Source: a virus (Duplodnaviria; Heunggongvirae; Uroviricota; Caudoviricetes). Taken from it: a stretch of DNA of 8,933 nt. Each line of letters begins with the position of its first letter. Positions within the stretch are counted from its first letter, which is position 1. The stretch lies in IMG/VR virus record IMGVR_UViG_2681813273_000009; one strand, 5' to 3'. The notes below the pieces were generated by a model that saw only the letters and a list, made by a program, of their open reading frames with translations, did not search any database and had not been told where the DNA came from. Below are positions 7,761-8,414 of this stretch, piece after piece. The position numbers were made by a program, and so were the translations under genes.

Positions 7761-8414
7761 TATTCATTCTTCCAGATTCCTTCCGGCAGAGCCTTATACT
7801 GAAATATACCTGGCTCAGGATATTGTTGAAAATATTTTATGTTTGTCAAAAATAAAAGTTCTGTTAAGTATTGATTGAGTGTTTGTTATACGGTCTAATG
7901 GTTTTTTCAGCATTAAATATTTATCATTCATATGGTGTGGGTAGAGTGAATATTGATGAGGCGTCGGGGTGTTTCATCCTTAGGCAGCGTATTGATATAG
8001 TCAATGCAGCACGAGCAAAGGCCTTCAGCCGTTTGACAGTTTTGTTCTGTACTCCTGATCGTCTTTCGGGAAGAGACGTTATTATTCTGAATAGTGATGC
8101 TATACAGAGGGTTTGCGATGAGTTCATGGTTGCTAATTCAGAATTATTTGCTCTTGTTCAGGAGTACAACAGAATAGCCAGGACCTGTGGTATGGATGAA
8201 CTTCGGATTACTCATCTGGGGTAGATACATATCTGGATTATCACCTGTTACGGTAAAAAGTGATTGCTTACTGTTTTTGTGAATGGCATTGCAGCAGCCG
8301 GATAATGTCAGTGCTGGCTGACGGTGTGCTGGTGGCGGGTGTGGTGGTTGTTGCTTTCCCGTTGCTGAAAAAGAAAACGCCAGACTGTTAGCCGGGTATC
8401 AGTTAGCGGGAGAA
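7761..8414. other. AT-rich insert (about 650 bp) between the second tRNA cluster and the conserved downstream element; candidate moron cassette
   Basis: In copy 1 the tRNA-Arg(UCU) is followed by a terminator and a conserved element; in copy 2 it is followed by this AT-rich block, and homology to the element resumes at about 8415. Confidence 0.5.
7898..8224 (+). CDS. Hypothetical protein inside the AT-rich insert (109 aa from ATG 7898; track ORF starts at TTG 7871)
   Basis: Only sizeable ORF in the insert; no convincing Shine-Dalgarno, and a 67-aa antisense ORF overlaps it. Product not recognised. Confidence 0.3.
   Translation: MVFSALNIYHSYGVGRVNIDEASGCFILRQRIDIVNAARAKAFSRLTVLFCTPDRLSGRDVIILNSDAIQRVCDEFMVANSELFALVQEYNRIARTCGMDELRITHLG

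Follow-up and report, generated by a model that had tools for sequence, protein, structure and literature searches.

The most consequential cargo of lambdoid phages, stx, is found in a slot that separates the Q-linked tRNA cluster from the lysis genes. The stx1AB and stx2AB morons lie downstream of Q and a methylase gene, after ileZ-argN-argO and ahead of STnc100 and nanS-p, and this AB5-toxin cargo is both AT-rich and rich in rare codons. For example, the Stx2a phage AP012536 (L007) has the order methylase, ileZ, argN, argO, terminator, stx2A, stx2B and then a conserved element (TCACAATTCAG..TTGACAG). In the lambdoid phage JLK-2012, this slot is occupied by tciA-tciB, again behind a tRNA cluster, and in P1 the pair is flanked by a methyltransferase-tRNA region and a tRNA gene. 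Homology to TerB is the sole basis of the tci names, and P1 can do without these genes (PMC10695390, PMC9603915). A further described relative is the RefSeq “hypothetical protein” WP_047088380.1 (92 aa), the equivalent of PHROG 2873, which is encoded before tciA-tciB and a holin gene. K-12 Qin is unsuitable as a model, as its slot carries ynfS-cspF-cspB-ynfU (in Qin only, within K-12).

The window analyzed here is a stretch of 8,933 nucleotides from a Caudoviricetes record (IMGVR_UViG_2681813273_000009), and the segment of interest is an insert of 654 bp on the plus strand, at 7761–8414. An earlier note, made from the letters of the window, had proposed that an AT-rich block of about 650 bp occupies the stx slot after one of two tRNA-cluster alleles, that it replaces the terminator found after the other allele, and that the same element resumes at about 8415. 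All of these points, including the coordinates, were borne out. In the comparison of GC content with the flanks that the note had suggested, the insert stands at 0.416 and its 110-nt leader at 0.318, against 0.496 for the whole window; as in a moron, the base composition is unlike that of the flanking phage genes.

The left border of the insert is an argO-type tRNA-Arg(UCU) at 7684–7760 (plus strand; ARAGORN, Rfam), and the right border is a conserved element identified by alignment at 8415–8498 on the same strand. This element is the 5′ flank or start of an STnc100-type sRNA, with a weak Rfam match to STnc100 at 8457–8567, and it is continuous with the JLK-2012 sequence downstream of tciB (93.7%). 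The right border is identical for the insert and for stx2AB of AP012536 (TCACAATTCAG..TTGAC), and the methylase-tRNA context upstream is the same. On the left, the two borders are some 40 nt apart, a difference due to the terminator, which is retained by stx2AB and absent from the insert. In the window, the first tRNA-Arg(UCU) is followed by an intrinsic terminator at 7375–7392 (GGCTCGCTTTTGCGGGCC + T8) and then by the conserved element, and in AP012536 the same terminator stands after argO, ahead of stx2A. While the stx morons retain this post-argO terminator, it is absent from the insert, and a site scan found no terminator-like site at the insert’s distal end. Judged by its sequence, allele 1 (7361–7473, plus strand) is the empty version of the stx slot. 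Finished genomes place the insert downstream of Q and an ileZ/argN/argO-type tRNA cluster and upstream of the lysis genes: the order in L003 is Q, MTase, tRNA-Ile, tRNA-Arg, insert, esterase and holin, and L002 and L003 together give Q, (MTase), tRNA-Ile, tRNA-Arg and insert, followed by an esterase or a holin.

The block is a real and very common segment of E. coli prophage cargo. Among 5,426 finished E. coli genomes, 1,183 carry it at a coverage of at least 80%, and most of these copies are at least 99% identical. This is about one-fifth of finished genomes, irrespective of pathotype; unlike stx, the block is not confined to pathogens. It is also carried by phage mEp460_ev081, which gave the sole phage match to the AT-rich leader (7761–7870, plus strand; site scan and composition) in a distant blastn search against phages. 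The leader has no homolog outside its own variant, and homology to other lineages starts at 7869 (L004) or 7910 (L012). Within the leader there is a sigma-70-like site, TTGAAA-16-AAAAAT, at 7826–7853, which matches the consensus at 9 of 12 positions, a level at which chance matches are frequent in AT-rich DNA. The promoter-like site of the tRNA cluster reads TTGAAG-17-TATTAT.

The two tRNA-cluster alleles from which the insert was delimited have the coordinates and contents given in the earlier note, with ARAGORN calling tRNA-Arg(UCU) at 7284–7360 and again at 7684–7760, but they are not genomic neighbours. The scaffold that makes up the window contains gaps, with N at 512–576, 4129, 5331–5346, 6104–6121, 7474 and 8499–8504, and the last two of these gaps are exactly the edges of a separately assembled piece of 1,024 nt (block B; 7475–8498, plus strand) that holds allele 2 of the tRNA cluster, the insert and the element. 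Block B is 99.1–99.8% identical to a single contiguous stretch in the finished genomes L002, L003 and L006. The 132 nt that precede the first gap (7342–7473) start in the middle of a tRNA and are repeated exactly after the second gap (8505–8636). They open a further block (8505–8789, plus strand) that begins inside tRNA-Arg and runs into STnc100 (RF02076 at 8600–8789, 123.6 bits; Rfam). A query spanning the first junction was never contiguous in finished genomes, where its two halves occur in reversed order, separated by about 396 bp, and the best finished-genome match fits window positions 6800–8933 into 1,595 bp. A real tandem duplication of the tRNA cluster was rejected in view of the gaps, the exact 132-nt overlap and the absence of the junction from finished genomes. 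The tandem layout is a scaffolding artefact, and block B most likely derives from a second prophage. Upstream of the insert, block B carries an ileZ-type tRNA with a CAU anticodon (7508–7583, plus strand; ARAGORN; Rfam tRNA, 72.5 bits), annotated as tRNA-Ile in RefSeq and in Stx phages (L002, L003, L007), and a degraded argN (7584–7683, plus strand). The latter is a tRNA-Arg(UCG) pseudogene without an ARAGORN call, its anticodon arm having been replaced relative to allele-1 argN in the alignment. Genuine stacking of slot modules exists elsewhere, in L005.

The open frame of the insert (7871–8224) had been described as encoding 109–117 aa from a weak start context, and the weakness of the start context was borne out. 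It encodes 117 aa from TTG 7871, 108 aa from ATG 7898 or 92 aa from GTG 7946. Relatives of 91–95 aa align from residue 26 (residues 26–117), that is, they start at the position of GTG 7946, and the conserved product is therefore 92 aa long. We call this core ORF92 (7946–8224, plus strand; profile, dN/dS and AlphaFold); it falls in PHROG 2873 and is predicted to form a helix-loop-helix hairpin. Judging from these alignments, translation most likely starts at GTG 7946, with a weakened ribosome-binding site: the Shine-Dalgarno is degraded to GTGGG where relatives carry AGGAG, GGGAG or GAGGGG, and translation may therefore be poor or start elsewhere, at TTG 7871 or ATG 7898. Compared with WP_047088380.1, the window’s variant has a core of the same length in the same position, but its Shine-Dalgarno is degraded, its frame is open further upstream, and it is left unannotated by RefSeq, which annotates the 92-aa form in L020.

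The ORF92 family evolves as protein-coding sequence. The dN/dS ratio was 0.32 over 117 codons and 0.22, 0.27 and 0.31 over the 92-codon core in three lineage pairs, compared with 0.8–1.4 in the other two frames as a control; this signal comes from comparison with two diverged lineages and is one of family constraint rather than proof for the lineage in the window. A Fisher test of synonymous versus nonsynonymous changes gave P = 6.5e-6, and the differences are concentrated at third codon positions (55, versus 35 and 33 at first and second positions). The ORF was intact in every copy examined, although the near-identical E. coli copies (at least 99%) diverged too recently for this to carry much weight. 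On this substitution pattern, the ORF is to be regarded as a genuine gene and its family as being under purifying selection.

Consistent with the earlier note, which had recognized no product, our searches gave the ORF a family but no assigned function. It matches PHROG 2873 with E = 3.8e-70 (residues 10–117 against profile positions 1–108 of 108), a family without an assigned function. A profile search of 1.84 billion representative proteins yielded no more than 21 relatives, of which the distant ones are 91–95 aa long. A scan of GTDB species representatives returned the ORF from E. coli only, and tblastn of 50,697 phage records found it in mEp460_ev081 alone. P1 tciC, upl and plp were considered as relatives and were undetectable as such by tblastn of phage records. 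In Pfam, the single match of the ORF was a spurious one to RHIM (E = 0.09), and nine diverse family members gave scattered single matches only (E ≥ 0.013); NCBIfam had no match for the ORF. The PADLOC defence models had none for the ORF, its relatives, tciB or the AraC-like gene discussed below, and a marginal one for the intact tciA of JLK-2012 (E = 0.003). The literature on DUF3927, STnc100 and tciA/tciB provided context, but we found no functional study of the block in it. The AlphaFold model of the 92-aa form (pLDDT 88) places helices at residues 3–33 and 50–81, and the product is thus predicted to be a mostly acidic helix-loop-helix hairpin of about 10 kDa. Its fold matches are generic: nothing fell below E = 0.5 when the PDB was searched by sequence profile, and nothing reached E ≤ 0.001 when the 117-aa model was compared with the PDB by Foldseek or when BFVD viral structures were searched. 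A conserved membrane anchor in the hydrophobic 25-residue N-terminal extension was considered and rejected, the extension being unconserved in relatives and modeled at a pLDDT below 50.

The right third of the insert has a different history. The earlier note had counted one ORF in the block and had named, as an outcome that would overturn its reading, homology marking the insert as a decayed fragment of a known gene. For the right third, that is what we found, in the form of tciA and tciB remnants; it does not apply to the ORF, which is intact and belongs to a family under apparent purifying selection. The ORF count stood as far as ORF92 is concerned, and it missed a DUF3927 frame at 8260–8391 and the tciA remnant. 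Of TerB-like tciA, about 25 nt of the 3′ end survive (8225–8249, plus strand; alignment with JLK-2012), the remainder being deleted: window positions 8232–8259 match the tciA/tciB junction of JLK-2012, and the TerB-domain ORF of about 141–165 aa that lies upstream of tciB is absent here. The tciB remnant (DUF3927; 8247–8391, plus strand) was recognized by PF13064, phrog_1470 and alignment. Its native start codon GTG reads GTT in the window (8247), and by alignment a net 20 nt (11 + 4 + 5) is lost, which takes away the first hydrophobic segment. The Pfam match (PF13064, E = 1.7e-27) covers profile positions 7–53 only and is read from a different upstream frame, and phrog_1470, “TciB-like”, matches with E = 7.8e-13. 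A full-length TciB has 50–54 aa, the native start and both hydrophobic segments, and the remnant falls short of this. Because tciB is frameshifted, the surviving 43-aa frame at 8260–8391, which RefSeq annotates as a DUF3927 protein, is a remnant. This right third is homologous to the tci genes of P1 and JLK-2012, from which it differs in that tciA is deleted and tciB frameshifted, and neither of those phages has an ORF92 homolog detectable by tblastn of the phage collection.

Other lineages retain the complete arrangement, with intact tciA after the ORF in L012–L017 and L020. The order is AraC-like gene, ORF92, TerB, DUF3927 and holin in L012 and L013, and ORF95, TerB, DUF3927 and holin in L014–L017; for L020, the RefSeq annotation gives ORF92-TerB-DUF3927-holin. 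We consider it probable that the insert arose by deletion from a conserved moron cassette in the stx slot and that only ORF92 is still under selection in it. The home of the cassette is the lambdoid late-operon slot, from the Q-proximal tRNA cluster to the STnc100/nanS-p/lysis region, and its full form comprises ORF92, tciA and tciB, in places preceded by a YdeO/GadX-like AraC regulator, and then the holin. In the lineage of the window, tciA is deleted to about 25 nt and tciB frameshifted. Given the missing terminator and a position downstream of Q, transcription of the ORF probably occurs as part of the Q-antiterminated late operon once the prophage is induced. In lysogens, a low level of transcription may also come from the tRNA-cluster promoter (by read-through), the site at 7826–7853 or both, and the adjacent tRNAs would serve the AGA/AGG/AUA-rich message. 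A coiled hairpin of 92 aa without a catalytic motif most plausibly binds another protein, and ORF92 would then have an accessory or host-modulating role and not be a toxin.

It is possible, though rather doubtful, that ORF92 was instead a subunit of the TerB-type tci system, with a role in membrane stress, exclusion or lysis timing, and is now a useless orphan in an insert that is hitch-hiking wreckage. The order ORF-tciA-tciB is kept directly upstream of the holin in both E. coli and Citrobacter lineages, and in the window tciA and tciB are wrecked, the Shine-Dalgarno is degraded and the ORF is uncalled by RefSeq. However, the L004 lineage, which also lacks tciA and has about 72% nucleotide identity, has kept an open ORF (dN/dS 0.27) despite the collapse of its tciB remnant. 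There, the remnant is further decayed, with stops in all frames, and the ORF blocks align gap-free at 70–82%. Retention of the ORF while tciB collapsed speaks for selection having acted on the ORF once tciA and tciB were gone. Likewise, tciA has an internal stop in L020, where the ORF is intact. Returning to the deletion-derivative reading, ORF92 persists without tciA and tciB and would therefore work independently of both.

A partner for ORF92 could be sought among transcription factors. The ANR family comprises small helical negative regulators of AraC-type activators, for example Aar. Like these, ORF92 is predicted to be a small, helical, non-enzymatic protein and is sometimes found beside an AraC-family regulator on a mobile element; unlike them, it shows no sequence relationship detectable with Pfam or NCBIfam, for either the ORF or its relatives (libraries that may hold no ANR model), and most of its copies have no adjacent regulator. 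The ORF could conceivably encode a partner or anti-activator of prophage YdeO/GadX-type AraC regulators that tunes acid-resistance or virulence regulons in lysogens, an idea from analogy that we regard as unlikely. Two diverged lineages have the ORF immediately 3′ of a YdeO/GadX-like gene encoding 241–242 aa, with a gap of 22 nt (L004, L005) or about 130 nt (L012, L013), and another ORF92 relative follows a small GerE-type HTH gene; the predicted small helical hairpin would also suit protein binding. But adjacency is weak evidence in a mosaic cargo slot, most copies have no adjacent regulator, including those of the window’s own lineage (more than 1,000 genomes) and L014–L017, and the ORF matches no Pfam or NCBIfam family model. 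The broader proposal, that ORF92 represents an uncharacterised family of small prophage regulators that bind to a transcription factor of the host or the prophage, with YdeO/GadX-type AraC proteins as prime candidates, is similarly improbable. If it were true, ORF92 would reprogramme acid-resistance or virulence regulons from the stx slot in about one-fifth of E. coli strains, independently of the tciA and tciB genes that it once accompanied.

We consider it very unlikely that the functional product of the block is an RNA, whether a leader, a processed 3′ tRNA trailer or a regulator of the STnc100 promoter. The block does have a tRNA cluster on one side and an sRNA gene on the other, and it lacks the terminator that would otherwise follow the tRNA, but there was no Rfam match at E ≤ 1 within 7761–8414, the substitution pattern is codon-periodic and frame-specific, and homology between lineages begins at the ORF and not at the leader. 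The earlier note had also implied a parallel to a toxin moron and had asked whether the AGA/AGG/AUA content of the ORF is elevated. The content is 7.7%, near the 7.2% of stx2A, but this is no more than base composition predicts: shuffles gave 5.96 ± 2.2 (P = 0.13) and the other frames are equally rich or richer, so a specific enrichment in rare codons was rejected. The proposal that the block, like stxAB, serves as a virulence or toxin moron, despite the shared slot, adjacent rare-codon tRNAs and similar rare-codon share, is extremely improbable, since the cargo consists of gene wreckage and a predicted 92-aa helical hairpin without an enzymatic or receptor-binding domain, its hydrophobic N-terminal extension is unconserved and modeled with low confidence, the block is not tied to pathotype, its rare-codon content is accounted for by base composition, and nothing in Pfam or NCBIfam resembles an AB5 toxin with an RNA N-glycosidase A subunit, a B subunit and signal peptides.

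The overall picture is one of ordinary prophage mosaicism and one under-annotated small gene, with no sign of a new mechanism or a new virulence factor. It does call for corrections to annotation: a gene from a family under apparent selection is missed by RefSeq in this variant, and the “DUF3927 family protein” call is a frameshifted remnant. It is also a warning that gapped draft scaffolds can string alleles of different prophages into apparent tandem duplications. Knowing what occupies this slot in non-Stx prophages helps to interpret prophage mosaics, and one very common occupant appears to be the stump of an ORF92-tciA-tciB cassette.

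ARAGORN called five tRNAs in the window, three in a first cluster (CAU, 7111-7186; Arg-UCG, 7194-7270; Arg-UCU, 7284-7360), downstream of a 358-aa DNA methyltransferase ORF, and two in a second (CAU, 7508-7583; Arg-UCU, 7684-7760). The middle tRNA of the second cluster (argN, anticodon UCG; 7584-7683) is degraded and was not called; its acceptor and T-arm ends are kept and its anticodon arm is replaced. The first cluster is followed by an intrinsic terminator (7375-7392; 7-bp stem and T8) and then by a conserved element (TCACAATTCAG..TTGACAG..). Behind the second cluster this terminator is missing, and a 654-nt block (7761-8414) precedes resumption of the same element. 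The insert coordinates, the absent terminator, and the single ORF (7871-8224) described in an earlier note were thus correct, and the GC content (0.416 in the block and 0.318 in its 110-nt leader vs 0.496 in the window) bears out an AT-rich insert. The conserved element is the 5' flank of the prophage sRNA STnc100 (8600-8789, plus strand; Rfam RF02076, 123.6 bits), which carries a terminator of its own (8760-8778); the scaffold piece that holds the second cluster ends in a partial copy (8457-8498). STnc100 and PasD-type sRNAs adjoining esterase genes have been described (bioRxiv 10.64898/2026.05.13.724894).

The earlier note took the two clusters for two alleles within one window, but this arrangement is a scaffolding artefact. 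Six N runs interrupt the window (512-576, 4129, 5331-5346, 6104-6121, 7474, and 8499-8504), and those at 7474 and 8499-8504 exactly bound a piece (block B, 7475-8498) that matches finished genomes as one contiguous stretch at 99.1-99.8% identity. The 132 nt ahead of its first gap (7342-7473) are repeated exactly past the second (8505-8636). The repeat begins within tRNA-Arg, so reading it as the natural extension of block B would be biologically senseless. Since genuine module stacking occurs elsewhere (in locus L005, a methyltransferase 3' fragment is repeated between two cargo modules), the junctions were tested directly. A 181-nt query over the first junction was contiguous in 0 of 5,426 finished genomes; its halves are found ~396 bp from each other and in reversed order, as in an ordinary single cluster, and window 6800-8933 is compressed into 1,595 bp in the best finished-genome match. 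Given the gaps, the repeat, and the junction query, we read the flanking blocks as a single path with an empty slot and block B as a separate, repeat-bounded contig that most likely derives from a second prophage in the strain.

A similar case is seen at position 4129, a single N where two overlapping rusA-Q alleles meet (3007-4128 and 4131-5328). Because both map to overlapping coordinates of one finished locus, L006 (2294-3416 and 2391-3596), what look like tandem ORFs at window 3383-4414 and 4411-5265 are probably a scaffold artefact too. The finished genome with genuinely stacked slot modules (L005; NZ_CP024289, O178:H19; 2400-6400) carries, in order, the methyltransferase, tRNA-Ile, tRNA-Arg, a 142-aa "TolA" ORF, the repeated methyltransferase 3' fragment, a YdeO/GadX-like AraC gene, and an unannotated ORF116. 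This layout suggests that cargo in the stx slot may be shuffled by recombination at the methylase 3' end.

The block was present in 1,183 of 5,426 finished E. coli genomes (at least 80% coverage), with 925 records at no less than 99% identity, and also in the sequenced phage mEp460_ev081. In finished genomes it sits in lambdoid late regions of the usual kind, running either Q antiterminator, tRNA-Ile, tRNA-Arg, block, element, and lysis genes (L002) or Q, a 65-aa ORF, methyltransferase, tRNA-Ile, tRNA-Arg, block, element, SASA/nanS-p esterase, and holin (L003). The Stx2a phage AP012536 has methylase, ileZ, argN, argO, terminator, stx2A, stx2B, and the same element. The right borders of the insert and of stx2AB are identical, so its placement in the stx slot was correct; the left borders differ by ~40 nt because the stx phage retains the terminator.

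The ORF is a real protein-coding gene. Only 17 clusters matched it in a word-indexed protein search, nearly all from the same E. coli/Shigella locus, but two were full length at only 56% identity. These lie on a contig representing 79 finished genomes (L004), where the same slot holds a methylase 3' fragment, an AraC-like gene, the ORF homolog, and the element. Against this lineage, the in-frame dN/dS was 0.32 over 117 codons (control frames 1.21 and 0.83). Over a 92-codon core, it was 0.27 against L004 (1.18 and 0.80), 0.22 against the diverged locus L012 (1.39 and 0.94), and 0.31 between L012 and L004 (1.01 and 0.96). Differences at codon positions 1, 2, and 3 numbered 35, 33, and 55, and the Fisher test comparing synonymous with nonsynonymous changes returned P = 6.5e-6.

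The conserved form of the product has 92 aa. Searching 1.84 billion representative proteins with a profile found only 21 relatives, and the distant full-length ones (91-95 aa) align to ORF residues 26-117, with start codons that line up with window GTG 7946 and a common signature (..ERAxAFSxLxVxYxTPDR..G..VxILN..EFxxANxELxxLVxEYNxIA..). The weak start context noted earlier was accurate, as the window has GTGGG where relatives have AGGAG, GGGAG, GAGGGG, or AAGGG. The 25 upstream codons are under weaker constraint (pN 0.43, pS 0.57) and modelled at pLDDT <50, whereas the core (ORF92) is confidently predicted (pLDDT 88, pTM 0.75) as a hairpin of helix 3-33, loop, and helix 50-81. The ORF matches PHROG 2873 (E = 3.8e-70), of no assigned function, and phrog_4827 weakly; as the earlier note had it, no product was recognised, and neither Pfam, NCBIfam, PADLOC, and PDB sequences nor three fold searches pointed to a function. 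All relatives are named "hypothetical protein" at source, and RefSeq calls the 92-aa form in the L020 lineage (WP_047088380.1) but not in the window's variant. The family, with hosts in E. coli, Shigella, and the Citrobacter freundii complex, is small and restricted to Enterobacteriaceae, and the window member is under-annotated. One 91-aa branch (cluster P0025, E. coli; L018 5001-5276) adjoins a divergently oriented PapB/usher/chaperone fimbrial operon, a setting other than a phage late region.

Outside the ORF, alignment shows the insert to be the wreckage of tciA-tciB. In phage JLK-2012, the order is Q, three tRNAs, tciA, tciB, yjhS, and S; window 8232-8259 matches its tciA-end/tciB-start junction, and 8292-8498 matches the remaining tciB and downstream element at 93.7%. 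The tciA gene is reduced to ~25 nt, tciB has GTT in place of its GTG start codon with loss of the overlapping tciA stop, and the first hydrophobic segment of tciB has lost 11, 4, and 5 nt (20 in all). Because of this start loss, the deletions, and a partial profile match (PF13064, E = 1.7e-27, positions 7-53 only), the RefSeq 43-aa "DUF3927 family protein" (8260-8391) is an out-of-frame restart on the remnant. In L004, the tciB remnant is further collapsed (stops in all three frames, 36-64% identity, many indels) and the ORF blocks align gap-free at 70-82%, which shows the part under selection. Decay of a known gene, the outcome the earlier note weighed, therefore holds for the tciA-tciB part and not for the ORF, with its gap-free alignment and low dN/dS.

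Relatives retain the fuller cassette: methyltransferase, YdeO/GadX-like AraC (242 aa), ORF92, TerB-like (141-165 aa), DUF3927 (50 aa), and holin in L012 and L013; ORF95, TerB-like, DUF3927, two holins, and endolysin in L014-L017; and, with RefSeq names, the same ORF, TerB-like, DUF3927, holin order in L020. The tci names derive from TerB homology in P1, where the genes are non-essential and their function is undemonstrated (PMC10695390, PMC9603915). In L020 (NZ_CP062204, strain C311; 3998-4408), tciA has an internal stop between intact ORF92 and DUF3927 genes, another sign of its dispensability. The prophage-borne regulator (241-242 aa; L004 164-889, L012 4142-4870) matches NF007407 under the equivalog cut-off (E = 4e-35) and phrog_1450, and an ORF92 homolog lies directly downstream of it in both diverged lineages. 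Recurrent adjacency to these regulators and to tciA-tciB provides two weak leads to ORF92 function.

The block follows Q and the tRNA cluster, and a terminator scan found none between tRNA-Arg(UCU) and the ORF and none at the block's distal end. A promoter-like TTGAAG-17-TATTAT precedes the tRNA cluster (7073-7101), with a counterpart in L002 (TTGCGG-17-TATTAT), where a strong terminator (CCCGCCGCCGAGCGGG and T6) separates Q from this site (region ~5690-5745), as a short pR'-tR' transcript ahead of the tRNAs would require. The ORF would be co-transcribed with the Q-antiterminated late operon, and low-level expression in lysogens may arise when transcription from the tRNA promoter reads through, or from a sigma-70-like site at 7826-7853 (9/12 match). 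For a predicted 10-kDa hairpin without a catalytic motif, binding of another protein would be the most plausible action.

AGA, AGG, and AUA make up 7.7% of ORF codons (9/117), compared with 7.2% in stx2A (23/319), 0% in stx2B (0/89), 1.1-3.2% in window ORFs 1947-3002 through 5994-7067, and 6.6% (9/136) in the AT-rich ORF 446-919. However, composition-matched shuffles gave 5.96 +/- 2.2 (P = 0.13), and the interval's other frames were at least as rich, so rare codons are not specific evidence of a functional ORF-tRNA link. The adjacent tRNAs would help the ORF as they would any AT-rich acquired gene.

The observed block is real, and only one gene in it is intact. The insert is best described, from its sequence, as a deletion derivative of a prophage cassette already catalogued and uncharacterised. 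It amounts to ordinary prophage mosaicism and improves the annotation modestly.
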